From contig JANRJA010000016.1 of the NCBI GenBank assembly GCA_033764315.1, positions 1-32,204 on the forward strand: a stretch of 32,204 nt of DNA, written 5' to 3'. The stretch's first letter is position 1; the number at the start of each line of letters is the position of its first letter. The DNA comes from Oculatellaceae cyanobacterium bins.114 (GTDB taxonomy: Bacteria > Cyanobacteriota > Cyanobacteriia > Elainellales > Elainellaceae). Shown here piece after piece: positions 3,160 to 17,127 of this stretch. Below the pieces are notes generated by a model, which was given only the letters and a program-made list of their open reading frames with translations, was not told the DNA's origin and made no database searches. The translations under genes and the position numbers were made by a program.

Positions 3160-3239
3160 GTGTAATTTTAGCCCTGACTTTGTTATGTTTATTTACCCTT
3201 TGTTTAAGCACCCACTCGGAAGTTTTGTTGATAAAGAGC

Positions 3240-3527
3240 ATGGCTATCCACGAAGTTTTACCAAAGCTCATTGTCATACCTTTATTCAGCACATCTTCAT
3301 TTTTAACTAACATCAAGAGATGGCAATATCCTGCTTGGATGTGTTTGGTGATATTGCTAGAAGTGGTCGTAACACCTGTGCCGTCCTTGGCGCAAGATTG
3401 CAGTGAAGCGGCGATCCAGCAGCACCTGAAGGAGATGATGCAGACAACGGAATGGGAAAAGGCGGTTGAGTTTATACAGTTCAGGAGACACCTAATTGAG
3501 CAGGTTTTGCCTTTCGTCAAGGTATAA
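3240..3527 (+). pseudogene. Truncated paralog (signal peptide plus first helix only) of the HEAT-TM-NACHT gene at 5635
   Basis: LAQDCSEAAIQQHLKEMMQTTEWEKAV here versus IAQTCGEPEIRQHLKEMMQTTEWEKAV. A 32-bp DNA stretch is identical at 3429-3460 and 5809-5840, and homology stops abruptly at ~3465. The start codon is uncertain. Confidence 0.75.
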
Positions 3528-3643
3528 TCGCTATCAAATTCTTTGATTCAAGGCTTTGCACAAACGATCAGATGGTTTTGACGGACTAAGGTTTGGCTTA
3601 GCAGGATCTCTGAGTGCAGGTGTAGCTACTATTGAGGTGCCTT

Positions 3644-5515
3644 ATGAGATGGAAGACTCCTTCTCTTTTTTGGATTGTCAATGGTCTGATAACTAGCAGT
3701 GTCTTCTTGTCTTCGTCTCTATCTGCAATGGCAGCGACCGATACTCAGGAGGCTGTTCCTCAACTCAATATAGAAGGAAGTTTTGCTCCTGCCCGTCTTC
3801 TTTTGGCTCAAACGGTGAGTGCTGGAGTTCTCACTCGAATTGATAACGCGGGGGGACAAGTGACCTTGAGAGGCAGCAACGCCACTCGCAATCAGTTGAT
3901 GAGAGTTCCAGAAGATCGGTTGAGAGTTCCGGCGCGATCGGGAGCCAACATTGGATTTCGCCCTGTTGGTGGAAGTGGGACTATCTCAAACTACTTAGTG
4001 CAAGCAGGTAGCCCCACAACTCATACAGAATATTGGTATCCCTGCAATGGTGGAAGTGGACGGTTTGTGATCGGCTGGTCAACCAGAGGCGGCACCCCAA
4101 CCTGTTCACAGGTGCGATTAGGGCAAACCCTGCGAGTCCCAGCCAGGGGAAATACCACTGCTCGGCTGACTACCCCAACCTTATCAGCACCCTCCAGAAT
4201 CCAGACCTTCAATTCACCTACCGCTAACTTCCCAGACACTCAGGGACACTGGGCTGAGGCAGAAATTGTTGCTTTAAGCAACCAGGGCATTATTGCGGGC
4301 TATTACGAGGATGGCACCTTTCGTCCAGATGCCCCCGTCACCCGTGCTGAATTTGCGGCAATGGTCAATAGGGCGTTTGGAAATCGTGCCCCCCTTAGAG
4401 ACGAACGAGACTTCCCAGATACCCAGGGGCACTGGGCTAACTCTGCCATCCGCACGGCTTATGCCCTGGGGTTTTTCTCGGGTTATCCTGGGGGAGTTTT
4501 TCTACCACAAAGTAGCATTACCCGCGCCGAAGCGGTCGTCGCCCTATCGAGTGGTCTAAATCTGTCAGGAGACGGCAGTTTAGAAGGGTATGCAGATGCT
4601 CCTCAGATTTGCGGCAGTGGTGCCCCCTACTATTGGGCTTGCAACCAGATCAGGGCTGCTGCCAGCAATGGCATTCGCATCAAGGGTCCTAATGTAGGAC
4701 AGTTTCGACCATCCCAGCGAGCGACACGGGCTGATATTGCCGTGTTTATTTACCAGGCATTGGAGATCGGCTCTGGGGTCCCCACGGTGGATGGAACAGA
4801 CGTTGTGATTGAACCCACAGATGCAGATATCGCCTGGGTTTTGGCAGATGTGACCGAGGAAAGAGTAGAGGTCACGGTATTAGGGGGTACTGTTTCAGTC
4901 GATACGGAGACGGCTCCTGCAACGGAGGTTTCTGCTGGAGAGCGTTATACCCTTGAGCAGAATGAAGCTGCTGTGGTTGCCCCGCTTTCCTCTGAGGAGC
5001 GTGGAGCGATCGCCAATTCTCCTGATGTTGTCATGTTCCTAGACCCAAATAGTTGGTCGCCGGAGACGGCTTCTGAGTTGAGTCGATATCAGCTCTACCG
5101 TGATGATTTATTTCAGCCCGATGTAGCCATCAAAATCCATCCCACTCTGGTTACACGAACCTCTCAAAGCACTGGAACAATCCAGCTTGTAGCTACGGTG
5201 GTTAATCAAAGTAGATCGTCTTATGTACCTGGTGCCGTTCAGGAGTTCACATTTGATGAAAATCGAAAAAATGATGATCCCAATTCAACTGCTCCAGCCA
5301 CGCAGAGAAACTTAGGTAGACAGAACTTTGAAAATCTTGCTCCAGGAGAAACTATTCAGATAACTTCTGAAATTCCCTGGGATGTTTCCTCTAGCCAATC
5401 TATCAACGGTTATGTGGCGTGTATTCCTATTCCTATTAACGATCCTAACTATTCTCCTGGATCTGGACGGTGTAGATGGCTTTGGCGCGATGATATTAAC
5501 AATTTATTTCGCTAA
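3644..5515 (+). CDS. Secreted S-layer homology (3x SLH) protein with a split FecR-like domain and a CARDB/Ig-like C-terminal domain, paralog 2
   Basis: Likely ATG at 3644. Collinear with paralog 1 up to ...FLDPNSW. SLH motifs FPDTQGHWA occur twice, plus GTFRPDAPVTRAEFA. Diverged C-terminus IQLVATVVNQS...NLAPGETIQIT. Confidence 0.85.
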   Translation: MRWKTPSLFWIVNGLITSSVFLSSSLSAMAATDTQEAVPQLNIEGSFAPARLLLAQTVSAGVLTRIDNAGGQVTLRGSNATRNQLMRVPEDRLRVPARSGANIGFRPVGGSGTISNYLVQAGSPTTHTEYWYPCNGGSGRFVIGWSTRGGTPTCSQVRLGQTLRVPARGNTTARLTTPTLSAPSRIQTFNSPTANFPDTQGHWAEAEIVALSNQGIIAGYYEDGTFRPDAPVTRAEFAAMVNRAFGNRAPLRDERDFPDTQGHWANSAIRTAYALGFFSGYPGGVFLPQSSITRAEAVVALSSGLNLSGDGSLEGYADAPQICGSGAPYYWACNQIRAAASNGIRIKGPNVGQFRPSQRATRADIAVFIYQALEIGSGVPTVDGTDVVIEPTDADIAWVLADVTEERVEVTVLGGTVSVDTETAPATEVSAGERYTLEQNEAAVVAPLSSEERGAIANSPDVVMFLDPNSWSPETASELSRYQLYRDDLFQPDVAIKIHPTLVTRTSQSTGTIQLVATVVNQSRSSYVPGAVQEFTFDENRKNDDPNSTAPATQRNLGRQNFENLAPGETIQITSEIPWDVSSSQSINGYVACIPIPINDPNYSPGSGRCRWLWRDDINNLFR

Positions 5516-5538
5516 TGCAACAGGATGAAATAACCTGT

Positions 5539-5603
5539 GTAGGTTGGGTTGAAGGATGAAACCCAACGCCTCGGAGGATGTTGAGTTTCGCAGGCTCAAC
5601 CCA
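5539..5603. repeat. GTAG-type REP-like palindromic pair
   Basis: GTAGGTTGGGTTGAAGGATGAAACCCAAC ... GTTGAGTTTCGCAGGCTCAACCCA. Confidence 0.65.
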
Positions 5604-5634
5604 CAAAAGCTAATTTGCAAGAGATTCAATAGTC

Positions 5635-8202
5635 ATGGCGAAATTAGTTATGAGCCAGCGATTTGTTAGCCGAACGCCGTTGCAGACCATCCAAGCTTTT
5701 GGCTTGAAATACCTCGCGACTCCCGTTGTGTTGATATTGGGGGCACTCACGATACCGAGCATGGCGATCGCTCAAACCTGTGGAGAACCTGAAATTAGGC
5801 AACATCTCAAGGAGATGATGCAGACAACGGAATGGGAAAAAGCTGTCAACACAATTGCTGCTTGTGAGGCAACTGCCCTTCCCGGTTTAGTGGTTGCACT
5901 GGAGCAAGGTAGCCCGAATGAACAGTTAGAAGCGATCGCTGCCCTGGAGAAAGTTTTTGCATCCCCCGCCGCCACTGCTGCTTGGGTAGATCAAGCTCCC
6001 CAATTGACCGATATTTTATTGACTCGCTTACAACCCGATGCCGATGAGCAGGTACAGGGGCGAGCCGCCGCCGTGTTAGGAACGGTTGCCTATCTTTCAA
6101 AGGATACCTCTCGCCATGAGGCGATCGCCCAAGCCCTGATCGCCGCTTTGGCGGATAGTAACAATCTGGTTGCGGTTCACATCAATGCGGCTTATGCTTT
6201 GGGACAGGTGCCCAATCAAAAAGACCCGATCGCTCAGGCGTTGTCACCGCTTTTAACCAAGCCTCAAACCGATCTGGGGTTGCGGGAAGCTGCGGCGCGA
6301 TCGCTGGCAGATTTGAATGTGGTTGATCCATTGATCGCCGTCCTGCAAAATCCGGCTGTTGGGGATGATGTGACGTTGTCCATCGTTCGAGGGTTAAGGG
6401 GAGTCACTGCGCCGACTCCAGCGGTAGTAGACACGTTAATTCCGTTTTTGGGGGCAAGCAATCCCGAACTGGTGATTGAGTCATCTACAACCCTTAACAC
6501 CATTGCTCAAAACCAACCTCAAGAGACTGCACCCCTTTTGCTGCCTCACCTGGATGCGCTGGTGGCTCATCTGGCGAACCCAAATTTGACAAGTTTGAGC
6601 AACACGGTGGGGCTGTTGGCAGTGGTGAGTGATCACATCGTTCAAGCTAAACCACCCCAAAAAGAACGAGACGGCTATCTCAAAACCCTCAACCAGGGCT
6701 TGCAAACTCTGGAAACCAACCCCAGCACAACAGACGAACTACGGCGGGAACTACAGCAGGCTGTCAGGTCAATGGAGGCGGGCAACCCTGCCTTGGAGCA
6801 GGTCATCGCGCAGATGGCGCGGACGGGCATGACGACACTGCTGATCCATAGCCTGTTTTGGTTAGCACTGGTGGCGGTGTATCCCGTGTCACCTCAAGTT
6901 CAGGCGATTTTCTTCTGGAACCCCAAAGTCCGCACCATTTTTGGGCTGGGTTATGTCGGGTTAGCCCTCACCTGGATTCCATTTTTGCGTGCCAAGCTAT
7001 TTGCTCCCTTTCGGGCAAACCTGTTGGCGGAGGCGGATCTGGATGAATCAGACAGCCAACTCTACTTTGCTGGGTCAGATGTGGTGCTGCAAGGCAAAGG
7101 GCAACGCATGCCAATTATGGAGGCGGTTCCCGATTTAAAGGGACAGATTGTCTTAGAGGGAGAATCGGGTCTGGGCAAAACGATGGCTCTCAAGTATCTG
7201 GTCAGGCGCAGCCGTCGTCTCGTGGTGTATTTGCCTGCTCGGAAATGTGCGGCTGGGGTGATTGAGTCCATCCGCGATCGCCTCCAGGGTCCAGCGCAAG
7301 ATACCGACTTTCTGCAAAGCTTGATTTACAGCGGGGCGATCGACATCTGCATCGATGGTCTGAATGAGGTCACTCCCGACACCCGCGCTAAAATTACGCT
7401 GTTTGCCGAAACTTACTTCAAGGGCAACATTGCCATCAGTACCCAACCGATGGATTGGACACCGCCGACCAATGCTAAAGTCTACCAGTTGCAACCGCTA
7501 ACATCTGAGCAAATTGGGGATTTTTTGCGATCGCGTCAATCCACTCTATCCCCTAAAGCTCCCGTACAAGGTGCCCAATATGAGCAAGCCTGCCAGGTTT
7601 TTCTGGCTAATCTAGACCCCAACCGCCTAACCACAGAGGCGATGACCCAAACCCTGTCTAACCCAATGGAGTTGACAGTCGTTGCACAAATGATTGCTGA
7701 CGGCAAACAGCCCGATTTACTGAACTTGCAACAGCAACAATACGACGCGATGGCAAGCCGATATCAGTATGTCAACCTCAACCAGCCGTTTCCCCTTGAG
7801 GCATTCGCAGAAATGGCTTACCAGATGCGTCTCAAGGACGAGTTCATTATTCCAGCAGATGCCTGGTTTAAGGAACTGAACTGTATGGAACCCTATCGCA
7901 TGGTGTTGAGTCGCCAACTCTCGGATGCTCAAGGAGGAACCGTGACCGAGTGGCGATTCCGCCATGAAAAAATTCAAGATTTTTTTATTGTGCAAACCTT
8001 CTGGGGACAGGGGAACGAACGCCCAGATAAGCACCTGGGTGATCCTCGTTTTCGGGGAGTATATCTGCTTTTGGCGACTCAGCTCCCCCTCGACAGTGCT
8101 CTGCAACTTCGGGAAATGCTGATTAGCCATGCCGTTAAGACGAAAGATCATACTGTGAGCGATCGCTTTATTGAACTGATTAAAACCCGACAACCACAGT
8201 AA
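5635..8202 (+). CDS. HEAT-repeat / transmembrane / NACHT-like (STAND) P-loop NTPase protein with N-terminal signal peptide
   Basis: Hydrophobic leader ending AIA-Q. HEAT-like repeats VQGRAAAVLG, VHINAAYALG and LREAAARSLA. Hydrophobic segments TTLLIHSLFWLALVAVYP and IFGLGYVGLALTWIPFL. Walker A GESGLGKT, Walker B DICIDGLNE, and the STAND-like motifs NPMEL and FRHEKIQDFF. Confidence 0.85.
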   Translation: MAKLVMSQRFVSRTPLQTIQAFGLKYLATPVVLILGALTIPSMAIAQTCGEPEIRQHLKEMMQTTEWEKAVNTIAACEATALPGLVVALEQGSPNEQLEAIAALEKVFASPAATAAWVDQAPQLTDILLTRLQPDADEQVQGRAAAVLGTVAYLSKDTSRHEAIAQALIAALADSNNLVAVHINAAYALGQVPNQKDPIAQALSPLLTKPQTDLGLREAAARSLADLNVVDPLIAVLQNPAVGDDVTLSIVRGLRGVTAPTPAVVDTLIPFLGASNPELVIESSTTLNTIAQNQPQETAPLLLPHLDALVAHLANPNLTSLSNTVGLLAVVSDHIVQAKPPQKERDGYLKTLNQGLQTLETNPSTTDELRRELQQAVRSMEAGNPALEQVIAQMARTGMTTLLIHSLFWLALVAVYPVSPQVQAIFFWNPKVRTIFGLGYVGLALTWIPFLRAKLFAPFRANLLAEADLDESDSQLYFAGSDVVLQGKGQRMPIMEAVPDLKGQIVLEGESGLGKTMALKYLVRRSRRLVVYLPARKCAAGVIESIRDRLQGPAQDTDFLQSLIYSGAIDICIDGLNEVTPDTRAKITLFAETYFKGNIAISTQPMDWTPPTNAKVYQLQPLTSEQIGDFLRSRQSTLSPKAPVQGAQYEQACQVFLANLDPNRLTTEAMTQTLSNPMELTVVAQMIADGKQPDLLNLQQQQYDAMASRYQYVNLNQPFPLEAFAEMAYQMRLKDEFIIPADAWFKELNCMEPYRMVLSRQLSDAQGGTVTEWRFRHEKIQDFFIVQTFWGQGNERPDKHLGDPRFRGVYLLLATQLPLDSALQLREMLISHAVKTKDHTVSDRFIELIKTRQPQ

Positions 8203-8267
8203 AAAGTTATAGGGATTGACGATTGACCAATCCGCTATGATGCAAAACAGCGAGTTTGGGAAAGCAG

Positions 8268-9476
8268 ATGGCGGTAAATCTCAGTTTTTGCATGATTGTC
8301 AAGAATGAGGCAAAAAACTTGCCCCGCTGCCTCAACAGCGTTCGCACTGTGGCGAATGAGTGGGTGGTGTTAGACACAGGTTCTACTGATGAAACCGTAG
8401 CGATCGCCCAATCATTTGGGGCACAAGTTCACCACTTCACCTGGAACCATGACTTCTCAGCGGCTCGCAACGAAGCCCTCAAGTATGTCAGTGGTGATTG
8501 GGTGTTGGTGCTAGATGCCGATGAAGTGCTGACAGCCGACAGTGTGCCTCTGATTCAGCTGGCGGTGCAGCAAAAAGACTGTTTGGTGATCAACCTACTG
8601 CGACAAGAAGTGGGTGCCGTTCAGTCTCCCTATTCGCTGGTGTCGCGGTTATTTCGGCGGCATCCTGACATTTGCTTTAGTCGCCCCTATCATGCCATGA
8701 TCGACGACAGCGTCACTCAACTGTTAGTGCGAGAACCCCACTGGCAAATTGTGGATTTATCGGAAGTGGCAATTTTGCACTATGGCTATGAACCAGGGGC
8801 GATCGCCAGTCGTGACAAGTTTCACCAGGCTCGTACCACAATGGAACGGTTTTTGGCGTTGAACCCCGGTGATCCCTATGCGTGCAACAAATTGGGTGCT
8901 TTGTATGTCGAGATGGGCAAAGTCGATTATGGTATTGAACTGCTAGAACGAGGCTTGGCGAGCCAACGCCAATCGACTCCGTTGGATGCAGCCGTGTTAT
9001 TTGAATTGCACTATCACTTGGGCATTGCTTACAACCGTCTCAAAGACACTCAACGAGCAGAGCAGCACTACAACGCTGCCACCCAACAACCCATCTTAGA
9101 ACCCTTGAAACTGGGAGCCTATAACAATCTGGGCAGTTTGCAGCAAGCTCAGGGCAACTTTGAAGGGGCAAAAGCCGCCTATGAAGCTGCTCTAGAAGCC
9201 GATCCAGAGTTTGCGATCGGGCACTATAACCTGGGTATGACTCTCAAAGCGATGGGGCAGTTAGAAGACGCGATCGCCCATTATAAAAAAGCCCTGCAAC
9301 TCAACCCAATCTACGCTGAGGCACTGCAAAACTTGGGCGTGGTGCTCCTCAAACTCGGTCGTGTGGAAGAAAGTATGGCGGCCTTTCAACGAGCAATCTT
9401 GCTACATGAACAGCGCAACGTTCAAGAAGCAGAGCGGCTGCGATCGGGCTTGCGACAAATGGGGTTTGAGCTTTAG
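8268..9476 (+). CDS. Glycosyltransferase family 2 protein with C-terminal TPR repeats
   Basis: GT2 motifs LSFCMIVKNEAKNLPRCL, LDTGSTD, DFSAARN, VLDADE (DxD) and ILHYGY. TPR motifs AYNNLG, GHYNLG and ALQNLG. The ATG at 8268 is preferred over the TTG at 8256. Confidence 0.9.
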   Translation: MAVNLSFCMIVKNEAKNLPRCLNSVRTVANEWVVLDTGSTDETVAIAQSFGAQVHHFTWNHDFSAARNEALKYVSGDWVLVLDADEVLTADSVPLIQLAVQQKDCLVINLLRQEVGAVQSPYSLVSRLFRRHPDICFSRPYHAMIDDSVTQLLVREPHWQIVDLSEVAILHYGYEPGAIASRDKFHQARTTMERFLALNPGDPYACNKLGALYVEMGKVDYGIELLERGLASQRQSTPLDAAVLFELHYHLGIAYNRLKDTQRAEQHYNAATQQPILEPLKLGAYNNLGSLQQAQGNFEGAKAAYEAALEADPEFAIGHYNLGMTLKAMGQLEDAIAHYKKALQLNPIYAEALQNLGVVLLKLGRVEESMAAFQRAILLHEQRNVQEAERLRSGLRQMGFEL

Positions 9477-9504
9477 GGAGCTTGGGTTTCAAGAAGGCGA
9501 TCGC

Positions 9505-10638
9505 TTAAGTCGGCGTGACGCTTAACGTGTAATTGGAAGCCGAGCCAACAATGCCGGGATAAACCCGAATGTAGTAGGTATCAAATGGGGAGAGACCTGT
9601 CAGAGTCACACTATCGTTGATGGTTCCCCCATTTCTCGACTGCGCCAGCTTTTGAAATGCCCCATTAAACACCTGAATATCAACGTCATCGCTTAACCCG
9701 CTGACCGTCGCTCGCAGACTGGTAATGCTAGAGTCCAGGTTCAGCACATAAAAATCATTGGTGTCGGGTGAGACGCCTACCCCGTTGGTGATCGATAGAC
9801 CCGTCGCAGTTAGGGTGCCACTGCCTAAGATCGTGCTATCCGTGAAGTTGTCATTGACGCCATCGGGAGGAGATGAAATCAACGAGAGCACATAATTGGT
9901 TGTGCTGCTGCTAAAGGGGATGACACGCGCATAATAGGTTCCCGCTGCCAGGTTGTTGAGGTTCACCGTGTCTGTATTGGCTTGATTGCGGATAGAGCTG
10001 CCAAGTTCGTTAAAGCTGCTGTCATAAATTTCTAAGTCGGCATCTGCCGTTAATCCCGAAATGGAGACACTCAAGTCGCTGGCACTGCTCAATGAAAAGC
10101 GGTAGTAGTCATTCGTATCTCGACCTGATGCACTCGTAAAGCCAATATTATTAGTGATCTGAGTGGGTGTAACAGGCGATGTGCCTGAAATATTGGTCGG
10201 GTCAAAGCGGGCAACATTACCCAGGTTAGAAGCCGTTGCAAAGCTGCCACTATCTGTATCTTGTGAAAGGATAACGGAGAGGCGATAGGCGGTGCGTGCT
10301 CTAGCAATGCCAGGAAACACCCGCACATAATAAATGCCTGGGGCTAGACCACTCAAATCAACTGCATCTGGAGTGGTGCCTGCCAATCGAGAAAGACCGA
10401 GCGATCGCCGAGAGGAGTCATAAACCTGAATATCAGCATCTTGCCGGAGCTGATCCAGTCGGACGACGACATTGCTGCTACTGGCAACCCTAAATTTAAG
10501 GAAGTCGTTGCCATCGCGGACAAAGCGTCCATTCTGGTTGAATCGGAAGCCAATCGTGCCCCGTCGGGAGAGAGTTCGAGTCAAGTTACCCAGATTTTGA
10601 GCCGTCCGAATCGTACCGTTGCGATCGGGGTCTGCCAT
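9505..10638 (-). CDS. Protein with three bacterial pre-peptidase C-terminal (PPC)-like domains
   Basis: Three repeats of the pattern D.ND(F/Y)Y.F...L.GL..D.D(I/L).(V/I)(Y/F)...S...G...D.V.L..L..G.YY.RV.P...Y.LS. Strong AGGAGG RBS. No classical signal peptide. Confidence 0.85.
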   Translation of the reverse strand: MADPDRNGTIRTAQNLGNLTRTLSRRGTIGFRFNQNGRFVRDGNDFLKFRVASSSNVVVRLDQLRQDADIQVYDSSRRSLGLSRLAGTTPDAVDLSGLAPGIYYVRVFPGIARARTAYRLSVILSQDTDSGSFATASNLGNVARFDPTNISGTSPVTPTQITNNIGFTSASGRDTNDYYRFSLSSASDLSVSISGLTADADLEIYDSSFNELGSSIRNQANTDTVNLNNLAAGTYYARVIPFSSSTTNYVLSLISSPPDGVNDNFTDSTILGSGTLTATGLSITNGVGVSPDTNDFYVLNLDSSITSLRATVSGLSDDVDIQVFNGAFQKLAQSRNGGTINDSVTLTGLSPFDTYYIRVYPGIVGSASNYTLSVTPT

Positions 10639-10808
10639 GACTGTGCCTCCTGATTAAAATCGGTTAGCTTCAGTCTAAGGGGGGCAATCCCAATTTAAGC
10701 AGTCTTTATAACAAATTATTCAGGGGGTTAAGTGGCAGAGCCACTTAGGATCGTAGATTAAATAACTTCAGAAACCTCACCCCGCCTACGGCACTCCTCT
10801 CCGACTCG

Positions 10809-11092
10809 GCTACTGTGTACACAGATCTCTGCTTCTTTCCAAATTAGGTGCAGGGTTGTTGCAATCGGGTAAAAACCAGGCATTGGGGGAGACTCCCCCA
10901 AACCCCCATTGGGGGACGCCACTGCCTCCCCCAAACCCCCTAGCAGACAGTGTTTTAGTTCACCCAAAGACGCGCTTCGCATCGGTTCCAAGTTCGGGTG
11001 TTTTGGGCGGGAGCAAGACCTTTGACAAAGGCTCAAAGTCTCCAAATTTAGGAGATTTAGGAAGCTGAGAGAACTTATGTATACACGGTAGC
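10809..11092. mobile_element. 284-bp MITE with 15-bp imperfect TIRs and a perfect 9-bp target-site duplication
   Basis: Left TIR GCTACTGTGTACACA (10809-10823), right TIR TGTATACACGGTAGC (11078-11092). TSD TCCGACTCG at 10800-10808 and 11093-11101. The interior consists of nested palindromic repeats with no transposase. Confidence 0.85.
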
Positions 11093-11131
11093 TCCGACTC
11101 GGACAGGGGCAGGGCGTGAACTCAGTCGAAC

Positions 11132-11235
11132 GCTATACGAGCAAAATCGACTTGCGTCGGTGCAGTAAACCTTTGATTTTGGTAGTCCGCGACGGCGGAC
11201 TTTGCTCTGGTAGCCGCGAATTTATTCGCTGGGCT
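11132..11235. repeat. ~105-bp cyanobacterial structured dispersed repeat, copy 1
   Basis: GAGCAAAATCGACTTGCGTCGG...GTAGTCCGCGACGGCGGACTTTGCTC...TAGCCGCGAATTTATTCGCT; a same-orientation homolog lies at 12279-12398. Confidence 0.8.
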
Positions 11236-11245
11236 GCTTAAACTT

Positions 11246-12247
11246 TTAGGCAAGCAACTGGGCGATCGCCGACTCAATCCAGGCTGTATCAGCGGCGTTA
11301 TAGCCTGGGCCACCCGCCGCATGTCCCCATGCCGATGGCAGCACTCTCAATTCAGCGTTTGGCATGTGTGACACTTCGATCGCACTATCGTCTGGTGGAA
11401 AGTACAAATCAGTTTGACTGGGCATAACGATCGCCTTGGCTCGAAGCGATCGCAGTGCCCGCACAAAATCACCCTCATACAGAGGATTGGCACTGATGTC
11501 AGCGTGTTGCCAACTCCAGATCATGGCCAACAGATTATTTGCATCCCAGGTTAAATGGTCGTCTTCCCACCATTTCAGCAATGCCTCAACGGTTTCAAAC
11601 CCCAGGTTTCGATATAGCCCTTCTCGATAAAACGTTTGTGAATACGCCCAACCTGCATAGACTCGGCCAAATGCTTTGAGTCCTGCTATGGGTGGCTGAG
11701 TATAACGGCCGTTTTGCCAGGTGGCATCGGCGGTTAAAGCCGCTTTAAGCCCCTCTAAAAACACGCCATTATGCACTGAGGTTTTTGCCGAACCGCAATA
11801 CGGGAGAATGCACTCAACGCGATCGGGATAGAGGGCTGCCCAGTGATAAGCCTGCTGTGCCCCCATCGACCACCCCAACACCAGCCTGATCTGCTCAATG
11901 CCAAACTGTTCAGTCACTAAGCGACACTGACACCGAACATTGTCGTACAACGTCACCCCTGGAAACGCTGTAGAGTCTGCCAGATGACTGGGCGAGGACG
12001 ACAGCCCATTACCAAATAGATTGGGGATGATAATGAAATAGTGATCGGGGTCGAGGGCACGTCCCGATCCAATCAAAGCGGCATTACTGCGATGAGTGCC
12101 GCCATAGTGGGTTGGAAAAATAATAACGTTATCTTTTTGAGGATTCAGTGCACCGTAGGTTGTGTAAGCAAGCTTTGCATCCCGCAAAATCTCACCCGAC
12201 TGTAGCCGGATATCGCCTAACTCGTATAGTTTGTAATCAGTGGTCAT
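11246..12247 (-). CDS. Alpha/beta-fold hydrolase of the homoserine O-acetyltransferase (MetX)-like family
   Basis: LQSGEILRDAKLAYTTYG, NLFGNGLSSSPS, nucleophile elbow GWSMG, Asp in DLYFP and His in WGHAAG. It has PTHYGG in place of the HALTG motif of true MetX. Confidence 0.85.
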   Translation of the reverse strand: MTTDYKLYELGDIRLQSGEILRDAKLAYTTYGALNPQKDNVIIFPTHYGGTHRSNAALIGSGRALDPDHYFIIIPNLFGNGLSSSPSHLADSTAFPGVTLYDNVRCQCRLVTEQFGIEQIRLVLGWSMGAQQAYHWAALYPDRVECILPYCGSAKTSVHNGVFLEGLKAALTADATWQNGRYTQPPIAGLKAFGRVYAGWAYSQTFYREGLYRNLGFETVEALLKWWEDDHLTWDANNLLAMIWSWQHADISANPLYEGDFVRALRSLRAKAIVMPSQTDLYFPPDDSAIEVSHMPNAELRVLPSAWGHAAGGPGYNAADTAWIESAIAQLLA

Positions 12248-12278
12248 CGGTTAACGTGAATTTGGGATCAGGATTGTG

Positions 12279-12398
12279 GCGGTTGAAACCGCAACTACAG
12301 GAGCAAAAACGACCTGCGTCGGTTCACTCAACCCTTGATTCTCCGTAGTTCGCGAAGGCGAACTTCGCTCTGATAGCTGCGAATTTATTCGCTAGGCT
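12279..12398. repeat. Cyanobacterial structured dispersed repeat, copy 2
   Basis: GCGGTTGAAACCGC hairpin followed by GAGCAAAAACGACCTGCGTCGG...GTAGTTCGCGAAGGCGAACTTCGCTC...GCGAATTTATTCGCT. Confidence 0.8.
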
Positions 12399-12420
12399 CT
12401 TAAACCGAACTAACGTTCGG

Positions 12421-13275
12421 TTAGTGATTGGTCTGGTCTGCCCAGGGGGTGAGTAATGCCGAAATCCATTTCAACCCGTAGTCAATCAACACCCCAATTA
12501 AACCGATCAGGGCAATGCAAAAAAATACTTTCTCAGTCTGCAAAAACCGTTGAGCCTGCCAAATCTTAAAGCCCAAACCATATTGGGCTGCTACTAACTC
12601 TGCAATCACCAGATAGTTCCAGGCTCCAGCAATATTCACGCGCACTGTGTCGAGCACATTGGGAAACGTTGCAGGCAAAATTACCTTCAATAAAACATCC
12701 CGGCGATTGGCTCCTAATGTATAAGCCACGTTGATCAGCTCATTAGGAATAAATTTCACCGCATCCGCAACCATCATGGTGTTATATAGCACGACTCCCA
12801 AAAACACAATTAACACTTTGGCATCTTCACCCAACCCAACCCAAATAATGATCAGGGGCACAAATGCCATTACTGGCATATAGCGAACGGTGCCAACAAT
12901 GGGTGCAAACAGGCTATCCATGCTATAAAACGTGCCCATCGCAATTCCCATTGGCACGCCAATGATCACCGACAGCAAAAATCCACCCGCAACGCGTCCA
13001 CAACTGGCTAAGACATCAATCATTAGCCCTTCTTGAAACATCGTAATCCCCGCTTGCAACACAGCAAACGGAGTGGGTAGAAACATATCATTGACCCACC
13101 CGGTCATGCTGATGGCCGTCCACAACAACAGGGGAACGGAGAGCGATAGCGTCATGATCAATAGGGATAACCACCGGGGAAATCCTTGGCGAATACTCCA
13201 GAAGACGGATGATTTTAAATATCGTTTTTCGGAAGGAGATGATGAGAGGGGAGTGGTAAGGCTGGATTGCGCCAC
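12421..13275 (-). CDS. ABC transporter permease, NitT/TauT (TauC/SsuC-like) family
   Basis: Multiple TM segments, FLPTP, RYMPVMAFVPLIIIWVG, EAA-like loop ELINVAYTLGANRRDVLLKVILPATFP, and LVIAELVAAQYGLG. Confidence 0.92.
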   Translation of the reverse strand: MAQSSLTTPLSSSPSEKRYLKSSVFWSIRQGFPRWLSLLIMTLSLSVPLLLWTAISMTGWVNDMFLPTPFAVLQAGITMFQEGLMIDVLASCGRVAGGFLLSVIIGVPMGIAMGTFYSMDSLFAPIVGTVRYMPVMAFVPLIIIWVGLGEDAKVLIVFLGVVLYNTMMVADAVKFIPNELINVAYTLGANRRDVLLKVILPATFPNVLDTVRVNIAGAWNYLVIAELVAAQYGLGFKIWQAQRFLQTEKVFFCIALIGLIGVLIDYGLKWISALLTPWADQTNH

Positions 13276-13315
13276 GGTTTATGTTTCCTCAGTGAGTATT
13301 GAAATAGAAGGTGAA

Positions 13316-14674
13316 CTAGAAAAACTTGAGATATCGCTGAATCTCCCAATCTGAAATGTGATTGTGATATTCCTGCCATTCCTCTGATTTAAACCGGACG
13401 TAAGTTTCATACATTAAGGGGCCCATCACGGTTTCACTCAGCGGGTCAGTCGCGAAGGCATTAATCGCATCTCCTAATGTGCGTGGTAAAGAATTAATAC
13501 CCTTTTGAGACAGTTCAATCAGTGAGTAGTTATACATGTTTTCGGTGTGAGGTTCCCCAGGGTCGAGTTCTTCGCGAATGCCCTCTAGACCCGCTGCCAA
13601 AATCATGGCGGCTCCCAGATACAAATTTGTCGAGATATCGGCGGCACGACACTCGACTCGTCCACCACCTAAGGGAATCCGCAGCATGTTGGTGCGGTTA
13701 TTGTTGCCATAGCAGATATAGACAGGAGCCCAGGTAAAGCCAGACATATTACCCTGTTTTACCAATCGCTTATAGCTGTTGACGGTGGGGGCAATCAGGG
13801 CACAAATTGCAGGCGCGTGCTTAAGAACCCCAGCAATGAATTGATAGCCCAATTTAGATAAGCCACACTTGCGGGGGTCATTGGGGTCAGCAAACAGGTT
13901 TTCTCCTGTTTTGGCGTGTGCCAGTGACATGTTGTAGTGGGCACCGCTGCCAGTGCGATCGCGAAAAGGTTTGGGCATGAAGGTGGCAAAATAGCCATGT
14001 TTTTTGGCGATTTCTTTGACCATCAACCGGAAAAACGTGAGCCGATCCGCCATTTTGAGGGCATCACAGTAGGCAAAGTCAGTTTCAAATTGTCCATTAC
14101 CATCTTCATGGTCAAAGGAATAGACATCCCACCCTAAGTGGTTCATGGCCTCGACAATTTCTGTCACCCAGACGTAGTTATCGAGTAGCGCAGGCAGGTC
14201 ATAGCAGGGTTTTGCCAGAGTATCCAGGTCACTGATTGGGGCAAAACCATCGGCTGTCTCTTTGAGGATGTAAAACTCGGTTTCGATGCCCAGGTTAAAG
14301 GTATACCCCATGTCAGCAGCTTGGGCGAGCACTTTTTTGAGAATGCTGCGACAACAGGCTTCAAAGGGTTCGCCTTTGAGATATAAGTCGCTAGCAAACC
14401 AGGCAAATTTAGGATTCCAGGGCAACACCATCACCGAGGACAGATCAGGACGGGCAGACACTTCTTCGTCGCTGACATCCTGAGGTACTCCATCAAGGGC
14501 TGCCCCGGTGAATAGCTCGGAGCCTGCCACCATCTGTGATAAATGGGAGAGGGGCACGGCTTTGGCTTTGCACATGCCGTGAATATCGACAAAGCTGGCG
14601 AGGGCATATTTGACGCCTTGCTCTTCGAGGGAGGTTTTGAGGGTTTGCAGTTCTGGGGTGAGATAGTCAGCCAT
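13316..14674 (-). CDS. glnT: GlnT/GmaS-type glutamine-synthetase-like ligase (probable gamma-glutamyl-amide synthetase)
   Basis: GS signature motifs GIETEF, DHEDGNGQFE, ATFMPKP...TGSGAH, NNRTNMLRIP and RVECR. SGFTWAP replaces the GYEAP glutamate flap, and KYALASFVDIHG and LPWNPKFAW resemble GmaS/GlnT. Confidence 0.88.
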   Translation of the reverse strand: MADYLTPELQTLKTSLEEQGVKYALASFVDIHGMCKAKAVPLSHLSQMVAGSELFTGAALDGVPQDVSDEEVSARPDLSSVMVLPWNPKFAWFASDLYLKGEPFEACCRSILKKVLAQAADMGYTFNLGIETEFYILKETADGFAPISDLDTLAKPCYDLPALLDNYVWVTEIVEAMNHLGWDVYSFDHEDGNGQFETDFAYCDALKMADRLTFFRLMVKEIAKKHGYFATFMPKPFRDRTGSGAHYNMSLAHAKTGENLFADPNDPRKCGLSKLGYQFIAGVLKHAPAICALIAPTVNSYKRLVKQGNMSGFTWAPVYICYGNNNRTNMLRIPLGGGRVECRAADISTNLYLGAAMILAAGLEGIREELDPGEPHTENMYNYSLIELSQKGINSLPRTLGDAINAFATDPLSETVMGPLMYETYVRFKSEEWQEYHNHISDWEIQRYLKFF

Positions 14675-14679
14675 GATTC

Positions 14680-14754
14680 AAAAACGAAGAGTGAAGAACG
14701 AAAAACGAAGGAGAAGAGATGCGATTAACCGCGTTCCTTCTCCTTCATCCTTCC
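14680..14754. repeat. Short heptamer-type tandem repeats (STRR-like) forming an imperfect inverted pair
   Basis: AAAACGAAGAGTGAAGAACGAAAAACGAAGGAGAAG ... TTCCTTCTCCTTCATCCTTCC. Confidence 0.5.
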
Positions 14755-14865
14755 ATAGGTGGTGGCATTTCTTTTAAAGGGGTGCCTTCTTTAAGGGCGT
14801 TTTGAAGTGGGGTGTTGAGGTCACGCATATCGGTTGCCAAGATTTGGGGTCAAAGGGTTCTTCTC

Positions 14866-16026
14866 CTACTTCCTGCCTTTTCCCTGAATCGCCTGCATGA
14901 TCAACTCCTGAAACAGGTGGGTTCCCATTTCCCGTGTTGGGGACAGTCGTCCCGGTTTGTAGCCAAGTGACTGCACTCGTTTTTGGATTTCGGGCAACAG
15001 ACGCAGGTCTTCTTTTTGAATTTTGTCGCCAAAGTCGATTAAAGGCTGAACGTTGTCTTGTGAGGTGGCGATCGCCGTATTGGGCACCAGCCAATCCCAA
15101 CGAATGCGAGTCTTGGTCGGTCCTTGTGGGTCGATCAGATAAATAATGGCGTAACCGGGTGAGAGAATCCAGGCAAAGTTAGGGAAAAAGCTCATGACCG
15201 CGAGCCGTTTCATCTCATCTGGGTTTAGACCTGGCATGTGCAGATCTGGGTCGGCTAAAAACCATTCATCGCCTTCGGTCAATGCGGGGGTGAATTGTAA
15301 ATAGTGGTGATGGCGTGCCTCCGCGATGTTGTGTTTGTAATAACGAATCAGGCTGGGGTGAACAATTGGTTCGTGATAATATTCGGCATTGTTTTCGACA
15401 TAGAGCTTCCAGTTGGTATCTAGCCAATAGTCAATGCTGTGAACCCGGGCCCAGGTGTCGAGTTGATAGCGTTGAAACAGGCTAGGGAGGTCACCGAGTT
15501 GGGCTGCCAGAGATTGAGCCTGGGGGTCGAGGTTGACGAAAATGAACGGGCCCCAAGTGTCGATTTGCACGGAGGTCAGCCCATAGTCGGTGGCGTCAAA
15601 GTTTTCAGCCGCCTCCATATCGGGGATGCCGCGTAGATTGCCGTCGAGGTCAAAACTCCAGGCGTGATAGAGACACGTGAGGTGATTACATTTGCCACTT
15701 CCCAGGGCTAGTGGCCCAGCCCGATGAGTGCAGATGTTAAAGAAAGCCCGCAGTTCTCCTGCTTTGTTTTTGAGAATAATCAGGGGTTGTTCGGCGACAT
15801 CAAGGGTGAAGTAAGAGCCAGATCCCTCAAGTTGGCTAATGTGCCCAACGTAATACCAATATTTACCAAAGACATACTGTTGTTCAAGATGATAAACATC
15901 AGCAGAAAAGTACATTTCTGCGGGCAGAGATACTGCTGCTTGGTGGAGCGATCGCGGCTGCCATGTGCGTAACCAGTCTAATCGCGACCCAGTCTCTGGT
16001 TGCGTTTGTATCGTCATAATCGGCAA
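14866..16026 (-). CDS. Rieske non-heme iron oxygenase alpha subunit (choline monooxygenase/CntA/GbcA-like group)
   Basis: Rieske ligands NICTHRAG...LTCLYHAWSF, mononuclear Fe motif NWKLYVENNAEYYHEPIVH, FPN and QKED. The start may be the GTG at 16026 or the ATG three codons later. Confidence 0.92.
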   Translation of the reverse strand: MPIMTIQTQPETGSRLDWLRTWQPRSLHQAAVSLPAEMYFSADVYHLEQQYVFGKYWYYVGHISQLEGSGSYFTLDVAEQPLIILKNKAGELRAFFNICTHRAGPLALGSGKCNHLTCLYHAWSFDLDGNLRGIPDMEAAENFDATDYGLTSVQIDTWGPFIFVNLDPQAQSLAAQLGDLPSLFQRYQLDTWARVHSIDYWLDTNWKLYVENNAEYYHEPIVHPSLIRYYKHNIAEARHHHYLQFTPALTEGDEWFLADPDLHMPGLNPDEMKRLAVMSFFPNFAWILSPGYAIIYLIDPQGPTKTRIRWDWLVPNTAIATSQDNVQPLIDFGDKIQKEDLRLLPEIQKRVQSLGYKPGRLSPTREMGTHLFQELIMQAIQGKGRK

Positions 16027-16094
16027 ACCTTCACACCAATATTTACGGGTTTGATTTCAGCTTAAATCAACATAACTTAATGTGTTCCCCGAAT

Positions 16095-16135
16095 AGTGTA
16101 TAAGGCTGTGGGTTGATTTTTGTATTACAAAATAC
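16095..16135 (-). promoter_or_regulatory. Canonical class II NtcA-activated promoter for the Rieske-glnT-permease-hydrolase operon
   Basis: Perfect GTA-N8-TAC (GTATTACAAAATAC, 16122-16135). On the minus strand, 21 nt later, a TAN3T -10 box TACACT (16100-16095) points toward the Rieske gene. Confidence 0.75.
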
Positions 16136-16284
16136 TTCTAGTCGAGGAATACACCCTGATCAATACGGAGACTGTTTTTTTGACATCCAGACAAGTGTAT
16201 CGGAGTTAACACTTGATCTCGCTTTCATCCGCTTAACTGAGAGAGTATTATCGATCTACTTCAGGCTCTTGACCGGAATCTACC

Positions 16285-17127
16285 ATGTTAAACGTTCGCC
16301 CTTTGCATGTCGTGGGAAAGCCCAATGCTCAAGCTATGTATGATGTTGATGGGTTGCGATCGCCTCATCTTCCCAAAATGCAAGTGCGCGATGTTTACAA
16401 GTCTTTTTCGGTGCAGGGCAAGCCATTGATGGTGTTGCAAAACATCAATTTGCAGCTCTATTCCAGAGAGTTTGTTTGTTTAGTCGGCACATCAGGGTGT
16501 GGCAAATCGACCCTGCTCAACATCGTCGCCGGATTAGTCTCACCATCGGCTGGTCAGGTGTTAGTGGATGGGGATGTGGTGGCAGGCCCTGGTTCTGATC
16601 GGGGCATGGTGTTTCAAGGCTATACCCTCTATCCGTGGCTGACGGTGGCTGAAAATATTGCCTTTGGCTTGCAGTTAAAAAGAATGCCCAAGGCTGAACA
16701 GCGAGAGCGAGTAGATTATTATCTGGATGTGGTGGGGTTGACTCAGTTTGCTCATGCCTATCCTAAGCAGCTTTCAGGGGGAATGAAACAACGAGTGGCG
16801 ATCGCCCGTGCCCTGGCCAATGAACCCGAAGTGCTGTTGATGGATGAACCGTTTGGGGCACTCGACGCGCAAACCAAAGAGCAACTGCAACAATTTTTGC
16901 TAGATCTGTGGGAACGCACTCACATCACTGTGTTGATGATCACCCATGATGTCGAAGAGGCAATTTTTCTGTCGCAACGAGTGTATGTAATGAGCAGTCG
17001 CCCCGGTCGGCTCAAGTTAGAGGTGCCGATCGCTCTGCCAGAACACCGTGACCTGGAGATTAAGCTCTCGCCTGAGTTTGTAGAGATCAAGCGAGATATC
17101 ATTCATGCCTTGCGGGATGAAGCGTAA
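16285..17127 (+). CDS. ABC transporter ATP-binding protein, NitT/TauT (TauB/SsuB/NrtD-like)
   Basis: Walker [24 protein letters not shown], signature [15 protein letters not shown], Walker [12 protein letters not shown] and ITHDVEEA. Confidence 0.95.

Follow-up and report, generated by a model that had tools for sequence, protein, structure and literature searches.

Guanidine has recently been recognised as a widespread nitrogen source for bacteria, and two routes for its use have been described, one relying on the Ni-dependent hydrolase GdmH and the other on guanidine carboxylase. The nitrogen of other amines is made accessible by gamma-glutamylation, as in the pathways for putrescine (PuuA/PuuD) and isopropylamine (IpuC/IpuF). 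Here we describe a stretch of 32,204 nucleotides (nt), further called the window, from Oculatellaceae cyanobacterium bins.114, a filamentous cyanobacterium (assembly GCA_033764315.1, contig JANRJA010000016.1, genome completeness 90.7%). At positions 11246-17127 it carries a cluster of genes for a Rieske oxygenase, a ligase of the glutamate-methylamine ligase (GmaS) family, the permease and ATPase of an ABC transporter and a MetX-like hydrolase. Judging from sequence comparison, this cluster represents a variation on gamma-glutamylation as a known way of scavenging amine nitrogen, most likely aimed at guanidine-type compounds.

The GdmH-GhaAB-GimABC system of Synechocystis (PMC12704784) resembles the cluster in its NtcA-type control, which has been published for gdmH and gimABC, in its importer of the NitT/TauT family and in its role in nitrogen scavenging, and differs from it in that the window lacks gdmH, genes for Ni chaperones, a riboswitch and a binding protein. 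The word Rieske is absent from the main text of that paper, the available part of which uses the term glutamine synthetase for the ordinary enzyme only. A second parallel is offered by MgdH/MgdL, a demethylating oxygenase and its helper encoded in a guanidine-riboswitch operon beside guanidine catabolic genes (PMC12508155, available part). In this system as well, an oxygenase hydroxylates the N-alkyl group of a guanidine, a helper acts next and the outcome is a supply of nitrogen. However, MgdH is a 2-oxoglutarate/Fe(II) oxygenase, its helper is a small lyase and no ligase takes part in the pathway, and we infer the analogy to the window. PuuA/PuuD, IpuC/IpuF and, for arylamines, AtdA1/TdnQ and NpaA1 share with the cluster the combination of a ligase resembling glutamine synthetase (GS) with an enzyme for oxidation and a hydrolase for removal of the glutamyl group, and differ from it in ligase clade, oxygenase types and regulation. 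Compared to these systems, the cluster is new as a riboswitch-free, Rieske-bearing variant with an NtcA-type promoter and a MetX-like hydrolase; further new points are the S186/D199/T56 signature of its ligase and the recurrent pairing of MetX-like hydrolases with this ligase family, of which two subfamilies are distinguished below as GS1 and GS2.

The ligase and the genomic contexts of its subfamily

Among solved structures, the ligase of the window matches 9qur, deposited as 'Glutamate--methylamine ligase', with 425 bits (~50% identity) and RhGmaS (7cql) with 332 bits, true GS reaching at most 273 bits. On the GlnA model it scores 343 bits against a cut-off of 429, and on the PuuA model 270 against 650. 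According to the available part of PMC7948447, the amine pocket of RhGmaS consists of Tyr147, Gln175, Asp177, Glu179, Glu186, Asn188 and Lys30', with Asp177, Glu186 and Arg312 as catalytic residues, Ala48' in the place of the ammonium-binding Asp50' of GS, and Trp300 replacing the glutamate of the Glu-flap. Alignment to RhGmaS shows that the window ligase keeps the catalytic equivalents (D188, E197, R327) and, as in GmaS, has neither the ammonium-site Asp50' (T56 there) nor the Glu-flap glutamate (W315). Five of the seven residues of the methylamine pocket are kept; Q175 has become S186 and N188 has become D199, and A48 is changed to T56 besides.

These changes are shared throughout a subfamily. 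In an alignment of 27 sequences, the signature KTYSDEEDWR is present in all 17 cyanobacterial GS1 sequences, that of the window included, and KAYQDEENWR, the exact RhGmaS pattern with all seven pocket residues kept, in all 10 GS2 sequences, among them a paralogue encoded on another contig (C188) of the same genome. The GS1 signature recurs in 82/82 matches (at least 64% identity) from the 80 metagenome loci introduced below, and in a quick IQ-TREE tree the GS1 and GS2 clades received SH-aLRT values of 98 and 96, respectively. The initial annotation had named the ligase GmaS-like; from bona fide GmaS it differs by three amine-site changes that are invariant in the subfamily. By its sequence it is not a canonical GmaS but a member of a distinct GS1 subfamily with an altered amine site. 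Its likeness to GmaS (7cql, 9qur, TIGR03105) comprises fold and family, the catalytic residues, the Trp at the Glu-flap position and the missing Asp50'; the differences lie in the S/D/T changes of the amine site, in the lack of adjoining mgs or mgd genes and in the occurrence of GS1 orthologues in guanidine-riboswitch operons. The extra carboxylate and the smaller side chain in the GS1 site would fit a larger, cationic nucleophile. Automatic annotation, as well as surveys that use gmaS as a marker of methylamine users, would count GS1 as GmaS or as 'type III glutamine synthetase', and the S186/D199 signature provides a simple discriminator of GS1 from the GmaS-type subfamily.

In the literature searched we found no function assigned to GS1, no tested substrate for any of its enzymes and no mention of it in guanidine operons, supplements not being covered by this search; the supplementary information of PMC12704784 on gdmH neighbourhoods may show a ligase or Rieske gene. 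Likewise, there was no mention of 'glutamylguanidine' or variants of the term, nor of guanidine together with 'glutamine synthetase-like' and riboswitch. Joining gmaS, cyanobacteria and Rieske gave a general review only, and joining guanidine, riboswitch and creatininase gave creatininase only within a reference.

In a sample of 401 cyanobacterial genomes, GS1 orthologues (at least 67% identity) occur in six genomes besides that of the window. Three small high-GC genomes carry, in this order, a guanidine-I riboswitch (Rfam), an arginase-family (gdmH-like) gene, HypA/HypB-like genes, GS1, genes for binding protein, permease and ATPase, and a gene for a distant Rieske protein of 350 amino acids (aa); a fourth (L094) has the same operon of riboswitch, gdmH-like gene, GS1 and importer, but without the final Rieske gene. 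A metagenome scan with the GS1 alignment yielded 80 loci, many of them on short contigs, and neighbours were counted within 5 kb of GS1. NitT/TauT transporter genes were found in 49 of the 80 loci, MetX-like hydrolases (45-55% identical to that of the window) in 15, creatininase-family genes in 14, class-I glutamine amidotransferases (GATases) of the PuuD type in 12, isochorismatase-family genes in 8, MBL-fold genes, Rieske1-type genes and a biotin carboxylase with a DUF1989 pair in 7 each, and arginase-family genes in 6. For the 40 loci in which GS1 is flanked by 3 kb or more on each side, the counts are 29 for the transporter, 16 for the riboswitch, 9 for MetX-like, 7 each for GATase and creatininase, 6 for carboxylase, 5 for arginase-family and 4 for Rieske genes.

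A motif scan detected the guanidine-I aptamer in 20/80 metagenome loci; the seven of these that were re-examined all score above the gathering threshold of RF00442, which was also found in the GS1 loci L090, L091 and L094. In other cyanobacteria, GS1 orthologues are present in loci of the gdmH type (L090-L092, L094, L134, L137, L142-L144), the arginase-family gene of which we take to be GdmH. In L155-L158, GS1 is placed between the importer and two DUF1989 genes, a carboxylase and an amidase gene, the DUF1989 pairs being presumably carboxyguanidine deiminases, and in L015 and L017 the Rieske-type cluster has such a carboxylase operon as its direct neighbour. Both assignments, GdmH and carboxyguanidine deiminase, are in accordance with PMC12704784 and PMC12508155. 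Several riboswitch loci lack known guanidine-degrading genes (gdmH, carboxylase) over the available sequence. Among them, L116 and L118 consist of the riboswitch followed by genes for an ATPase, a binding protein, a creatininase-family protein, GS1 and a permease, and in L135 the riboswitch lies immediately 5' of GS1. Moreover, in the quick tree the GS1 sequences of the riboswitch loci L116, L118 and L134 fall within the group of the Rieske-type ones, to which that of the window belongs, and the ATPases and permeases of these loci are 70-77% and 67-73% identical to those of the window (75-77% and 67-68% for L116 and L118 alone). When the regions 5' of twelve riboswitch-bearing loci were searched for an NtcA-type box, it was found only at the genome's own gdmH locus.

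A methylated amine had been put forward as the target of the pathway. The contexts of GS1, with guanidine-I riboswitches, gdmH-like genes, guanidine/urea carboxylase and Gim-type importers, suggest guanidine instead of methylamines or quaternary amines. GS1 is found behind guanidine riboswitches in many lineages. These contexts point to an ATP- and glutamate-dependent step in the metabolism of guanidine or alkylguanidines, which would widen the range of organic nitrogen sources of cyanobacteria.

A gene of hydrolase type lies within 2.5 kb of GS1 in 48 of the 80 metagenome loci (an alpha/beta hydrolase in 15, a creatininase-family gene in 14 and a class-I GATase in 12), and over that distance an alpha/beta (MetX-like) hydrolase and a creatininase-family gene never co-occur. 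Our interpretation is that GS1 has beside it a 'hydrolase slot' with interchangeable occupants, of which the MetX-like gene of the window would be one. A similar pairing is seen for GS2: out of 21 other cyanobacterial genomes with a MetX-like gene, 13 have it directly next to GS2, and the usual arrangement is a trio of an FA_desaturase-like gene, a MetX-like hydrolase and GS2 (9 of the 11 loci examined: L098-L104, L107 and L091; e.g. L098:6755-10277). The desaturase-like membrane oxygenase of this trio has arginine hydroxylase GntB as its best NCBIfam match (62 bits against a cut-off of 380), and an NtcA-type box 5' of its gene was found in 0/10 loci. The MetX-like gene stands outside the conserved Rieske cluster described in the next section, yet is a recurrent neighbour of the GS1/GS2 ligase family.

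The hydrolase of the window fails both MetX equivalog cut-offs (140.8 versus 500 bits and 127.4 versus 331). Its nearest PDB entries, 5e4y and 5d6o (224 bits), are presumably the esterases MekB and CgHle. With MetX and these MetX-like esterases it has in common the alpha/beta-hydrolase fold and a GXSXG nucleophile motif (GWSMG); it differs in belonging to PRK07581 and not to MetX. The gene is bracketed by two copies (~82% identical) of a hairpin-rich direct repeat of 103 nt, to which weak Rfam matches to 'CRISPR-DR28' (E<=1) had pointed. This repeat is dispersed, the two copies giving 248 blastn matches across the genome, and has the look of a miniature inverted-repeat transposable element or of a repetitive extragenic palindromic element. 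As the element is dispersed, it was not used as a sign that the MetX-like gene was inserted; the bracketing may or may not be due to chance.

The cluster, its promoter and the Rieske neighbourhood

Table 1 Features of the cluster and of its immediate surroundings in the window
Feature	Position	Strand	Remarks
Rieske non-haem-iron oxygenase, alpha-only, 383 aa	14866-16017	-	PF00355 + PF00848; ATG at 16017, open reading frame opens with TTG at 16026
GmaS-family gamma-glutamyl ligase, assigned to GS1 subfamily	13316-14674	-	TIGR03105, 587.2 bits (cut-off 469.6)
NitT/TauT-family ABC permease	12421-13275	-	PF00528; best match TauC, 154 bits, under cut-off
MetX-like alpha/beta hydrolase, PRK07581 subfamily	11246-12247	-	NF005757, 488 bits (cut-off 332)
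NitT/TauT-type ABC transporter ATP-binding protein	16285-17127	+	PF00005, 118 bits; divergent from Rieske operon
Candidate NtcA-type promoter	16095-16135	-	GTATTTTGTAATAC at 16135-16122, 21-nt spacer, -10 box TACACT at 16100-16095
Direct repeat, 103 nt, first copy	11133-11235
Direct repeat, 103 nt, second copy	12295-12398
RTX-repeat protein, 178 aa	17161-17697		directly after ATPase gene
Multidomain protein, 2662 aa	18321-26309		follows the 178-aa RTX protein

All five open reading frames of the cluster (Table 1) are intact, and the arrangement of four co-oriented genes with a divergent ATPase gene was found where the initial annotation had placed it; profile matches bore out the family that it had given to each of the five. 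The four minus-strand genes are separated by 191, 40 and 173 nt. The box with correctly spaced -10 that had been attributed to NtcA is likewise real as a motif (GTAN8TAC, 21 nt, TACACT), and lies ~78 nt 5' of the Rieske ATG.

Bare GTAN8TAC is not rare, being commoner than chance in the window (7 versus 2.9 expected), and therefore its conservation across orthologous loci was examined, the layout being defined as GTAN8TAC with a -10 box TAN3T placed 20-24 nt behind it. In the 16 loci with a complete region 5' of the orthologous Rieske gene (the window and L008-L022), the full layout is kept in 13 and lacking in L008, L011 and L019, compared to a mean of 0.26 loci and a maximum of 3 after 2000 mononucleotide shuffles of the same intergenic regions. 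Because the loci are homologous, this count reflects phylogenetic footprinting, i.e. conservation, and not 13 independent events. The layout is also present in the 4/4 metagenome loci with the divergent ATPase/Rieske arrangement (L108, L109, L110, L112), of which L109 resembles a second copy of the L018 locus according to the ligase tree and gene identities, and L110 a second copy of L015 according to gene identities only. We conclude that the cluster is under a candidate NtcA-activated promoter of the class II type, the layout of which is conserved. Consensus scans for sigma-70 promoters and terminators between 10600 and 17800 gave results at or under shuffle expectation, and the Rfam search of the window returned no family at the gathering score and only chance-level matches at E<=1.

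In the Rieske protein, the closest homologues of which belong to genomes of Oscillatoria, Leptolyngbya and the Elainellales type, the Rieske ligands C96-x-H98...C115-x-x-H118 and the iron site H215, H220 and D337 are invariant or nearly so (alignment A1). Its nearest solved structures are the demethylases 4qup and 3vca and CntA (6y8j), with phmmer E-values of ~1e-34 to 1e-36; the relatedness to the CntA/GbcA/Stc2 group stated earlier is in agreement with this, Stc2-type demethylases and CntA being the nearest. GbcA is the best NCBIfam match, at 180 bits and far under the cut-off of 670. With these alpha3-type oxygenases the protein shares the ligands of the Rieske cluster and the mononuclear iron as well as the lack of a beta-subunit gene, but the relation is a distant one, as the missed GbcA cut-off illustrates, and the window cluster has no reductase gene. 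A second conserved small-subunit (beta) family was not seen in 19 mapped Rieske loci. A gene for a cognate FNR-type reductase is absent from the window, and PF00175 matches in the genome are confined to contigs C52 and C142. The earlier statement that mgs, mgd and reductase genes are all missing from the window proved correct.

Scanning with the Rieske alignment, with one genome per species, gave 77 loci, and the gene neighbourhood was compared in the 14 loci, the window included, that have a Rieske orthologue of at least 65% identity and at least 4 kb downstream. Downstream of this gene (Rieske1), permease orthologues 69-81% identical to that of the window are present in 14/14 loci, the ligase in 12 (missing in L010 and L012), a short-chain dehydrogenase/reductase (SDR) gene in 10, a creatininase-family hydrolase in 6 and the MetX-like hydrolase in the window only. 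ATPase orthologues (71-84% identical) are divergently adjacent to Rieske1 in 11 of the 13 loci in which this could be assessed. Frequent extras in the sister loci are a second Rieske gene and genes for an NMT1-type binding protein, an EamA-type protein and hydrolases of the isochorismatase family and the MBL fold. Co-occurrence across species, which the initial annotation had named as a check, therefore stands for the Rieske, permease, ligase and ATPase genes and falls for the MetX-like gene (1/14); the four-gene set is not a conserved unit, the usual partners being an SDR, a creatininase-family protein and a binding protein instead. The window cluster is a reduced variant, without SDR and binding protein. 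The two loci without a ligase gene, L010 and L012 (from Elainellaceae genomes), have, at about 8.7-12.9 kb of each locus, a divergent ATPase gene, an NtcA-type box, Rieske1, a permease gene and an isochorismatase-family gene.

Proposed route and alternative explanations

In our judgement there is an even chance that the cluster serves as an operon, equipped with an NtcA-type promoter, for scavenging nitrogen from guanidine-type compounds, with GS1 and the NitT/TauT importer as its core and the Rieske enzyme as an add-on. By sequence, the importer is paralogous to the guanidine importer GimABC; its ATPase and permease are 58% and 48% identical to those of a gdmH-linked importer on contig C251 of the same genome. 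It would take up guanidine or an N-alkylguanidine. The Rieske enzyme would hydroxylate the carbon next to a guanidino nitrogen of a substituted guanidine, giving guanidine and an aldehyde, a step that is proposed because its relatives CntA, GbcA and Stc2 carry out the same chemistry. GS1 would then use ATP to link the gamma-carboxyl group of glutamate with guanidine or with a compound very similar to it, and the MetX-like, esterase-type hydrolase would process the resulting gamma-glutamyl adduct, an acylguanidine, with glutamine and urea as plausible products. The substrates, the products and the order of the steps are those that we infer. The general logic proposed in the initial annotation, from import through oxidative C-N cleavage and glutamylation of the base set free to hydrolysis, can be upheld provided that this base is guanidine, and methylguanidine was on its own list of substrates; taken as a whole, its observation was confirmed and its interpretation partly supported.

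More tentatively, and with a probability that we put clearly lower, GS1 might constitute a third route of guanidine assimilation, in which ATP-dependent gamma-glutamylation is followed by the action of an interchangeable hydrolase (creatininase-family, MetX-like, GATase-like or MBL) to yield glutamine and urea, one nitrogen going straight into glutamine. Filamentous cyanobacteria would have added NtcA control and a Rieske enzyme for N-alkylguanidines such as methylguanidine.

Several points weigh against a role in guanidine scavenging. The importer is incomplete, with a permease and an ATPase but no binding-protein gene in the window, where sister loci carry one; the closest binding protein encoded in the genome (C68:5741-6760) is 42-46% identical to the cluster-type protein. 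Given an identity of only 28-33% between the cluster-type binding protein and proteins of the GimA type, the compound taken up is not necessarily guanidine. The guanidine-I riboswitch (RF00442) was not found in the window, either at the gathering score or at E<=1, and the window contains no arginase-family (gdmH) gene and no carboxylase gene. The SDR gene that accompanies the Rieske gene in 10/14 loci is poorly explained by the guanidine scheme. The pair of Rieske enzyme and transporter can exist without GS1, as in L010 and L012, and the Rieske step may be ligase-independent; conversely, 73/80 metagenome GS1 loci have no Rieske gene beside GS1. Some operons with GS1 already encode a full guanidine pathway by way of gdmH or carboxylase, and another guanidine-consuming enzyme looks superfluous there, and the association with the riboswitch shows regulation by guanidine, not that guanidine is the substrate of the ligase.

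The alternative that survives best, although we regard it as unlikely, places glutamylation first, in the style of the Ipu and aniline-dioxygenase pathways. An imported primary alkylamine, amino-alcohol or amino-sulfonate (ethanolamine, taurine) would be glutamylated by GS1, the Rieske enzyme would hydroxylate the carbon next to the amide nitrogen, and the carbinolamide would give glutamine and an aldehyde with the help of the alpha/beta hydrolase, the SDR of the sister loci reducing the aldehyde and the EamA-type protein acting as exporter. Glutamylation indeed precedes Rieske oxidation in the case of aniline and 1-naphthylamine (PMC11335346, available part), and the SDR (10/14 loci) and EamA-type genes that accompany the cluster find a place in such an order. 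The same holds for the recurring trio of a GS-like ligase, an oxygenase and a hydrolase, in which the oxygenase varies between Rieske1, the distant 350-aa Rieske protein and, in L093, an FA_desaturase-like protein, and for the PuuD-type class-I GATase beside GS1 in 12/80 loci; moreover, the best family of the binding protein is the aliphatic-sulfonate protein SsuA, at 120 bits and under the cut-off. What this order leaves unexplained is the presence of GS1 orthologues, 67-80% identical and with the same site, behind guanidine riboswitches and beside guanidine enzymes. Nor do the many GS1 loci without a Rieske gene (73/80) fit it, and the window itself has neither an SDR gene nor an exporter gene.

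We consider improbable the scheme put forward in the initial annotation, in which a methylated or quaternary amine (trimethylamine, betaine, choline, carnitine) would be imported and cleaved by the Rieske enzyme, the methylamine glutamylated by a GmaS-type ligase and the product finished by the MetX-like enzyme, without the N-methylglutamate pathway. The Rieske protein, with Stc2-type demethylases and CntA as its closest solved relatives and GbcA as best NCBIfam match, would suit this chemistry, as would a ligase that passes TIGR03105, is ~50% identical to a solved glutamate--methylamine ligase and conserves the catalytic D177, E186 and R312; NtcA-type control, too, fits nitrogen scavenging. 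However, neither Q175 nor N188, which the two solved GmaS enzymes have in common, is retained in any GS1 sequence, the transporter belongs to the NitT/TauT and not to the OpuA/ProU type known for betaine, the GbcA score is 180 against 670, and the GS1 contexts point to guanidine. In addition, the genome encodes a canonical-site GS2 on contig C188 and an mgd/mgs-like cluster on contig C16, both of them unlinked to the window.

Very improbable, in our view, is that GS1 serves as an auxiliary, ammonium-assimilating GS that captures the ammonium released by guanidine enzymes and in the window merely accompanies an unrelated pair of Rieske enzyme and transporter. Its presence in complete guanidine operons that yield ammonium, of the gdmH type (L137, L142, L143) or the carboxylase type (L155-L158), would be in line with such a function, and two species have the Rieske and permease genes without GS1. 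Against it, two residues on which true GS depends for ammonium, the Asp50' equivalent and the glutamate of the Glu-flap, are missing from GS1, GS1 stays under the cut-off of the GlnA model (343 versus 429 bits), and the hydrolase slot beside it would be left unexplained. Finally, an aromatic-amine cluster of the aniline-dioxygenase type (AtdA1/TdnQ ligase, ring dioxygenase, cis-diol dehydrogenase), of which the GS-like ligase, the Rieske enzyme and the SDR of the sister loci recall the classical trio of ring dioxygenase and diol dehydrogenase, can practically be dismissed, as the cluster has no beta-subunit, reductase, GATase or ring-cleavage genes, the Rieske protein is closest to N-demethylases and the ligase to GmaS, and the NtcA and riboswitch contexts fit small nitrogen compounds.

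Other loci of the genome and flanking genes

The genome has a gdmH-like locus of its own (L188, C251:15366-21325), which comprises arginase-family and HypB-like genes and genes for a NitT/TauT binding protein, permease and ATPase. This locus has an NtcA-type box with a spaced -10 and a guanidine-I riboswitch confirmed by Rfam (75.9 bits), and matches the published Synechocystis arrangement.

The genome search for mgs and mgd genes that had been suggested pointed to a cluster outside the window. On contig C16, a series of genes at positions 2902-11698 (locus L189, C16:5001-16000) encodes a soxB-like protein (482 versus 529 bits), a soxD and a soxA-family protein, a 267-aa protein, a class-II amidotransferase, a GXGXG protein and a glutamate-synthase FMN-domain protein. 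Its layout is that of mgdABCD plus mgsABC (N-methylglutamate dehydrogenase and synthase) and makes it a candidate complete methylamine route, unlinked to the window. The GS2 paralogue with the canonical pocket is encoded at C188:17804-19144, likewise unlinked. Together, the C16 cluster and GS2 indicate that the genome may already own a conventional methylamine route.

A paralogue of the Rieske protein, 47% identical to that of the window, is encoded on contig C96, where the surrounding region (L085, C96:33346-46302) contains two DUF1989 genes, a creatininase-family and an FA_desaturase-like gene, a GntR regulator gene, 2-hydroxyacid dehydrogenase and class-II aldolase genes and a polar-amino-acid ABC transporter. 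This may be a second cluster of the genome for a guanidino-type compound. In another species (L035), a DUF1989 gene lies ~3 kb from a Rieske paralogue.

A second NitT/TauT transporter is encoded on contig C35 (L086, C35:2689-13219), with two tandem binding-protein genes, an SDR gene and two FA_desaturase-like genes, and further with genes for a polysaccharide-deacetylase-family protein, a xylose-isomerase-like TIM-barrel protein and an Lrp/AsnC regulator. In L016 and L022, these accessory families also occur next to the full cluster.

A natural-product (biosynthetic) reading of the cluster was dropped, since there are no non-ribosomal peptide synthetase, polyketide synthase or tailoring genes and the regulation is of the nitrogen-scavenging type. 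The genes that flank the cluster in the window are unrelated to it and encode SLH, HEAT, GT2-TPR, PPC-domain, RTX/cadherin, radical SAM and other proteins. The 178-aa RTX-repeat protein occupies the place directly after the ATPase gene where sister loci have the binding-protein gene, and the 2662-aa protein behind it combines RTX, cadherin-like, Calx-beta, lamin-tail and endo/exonuclease-phosphatase domains.

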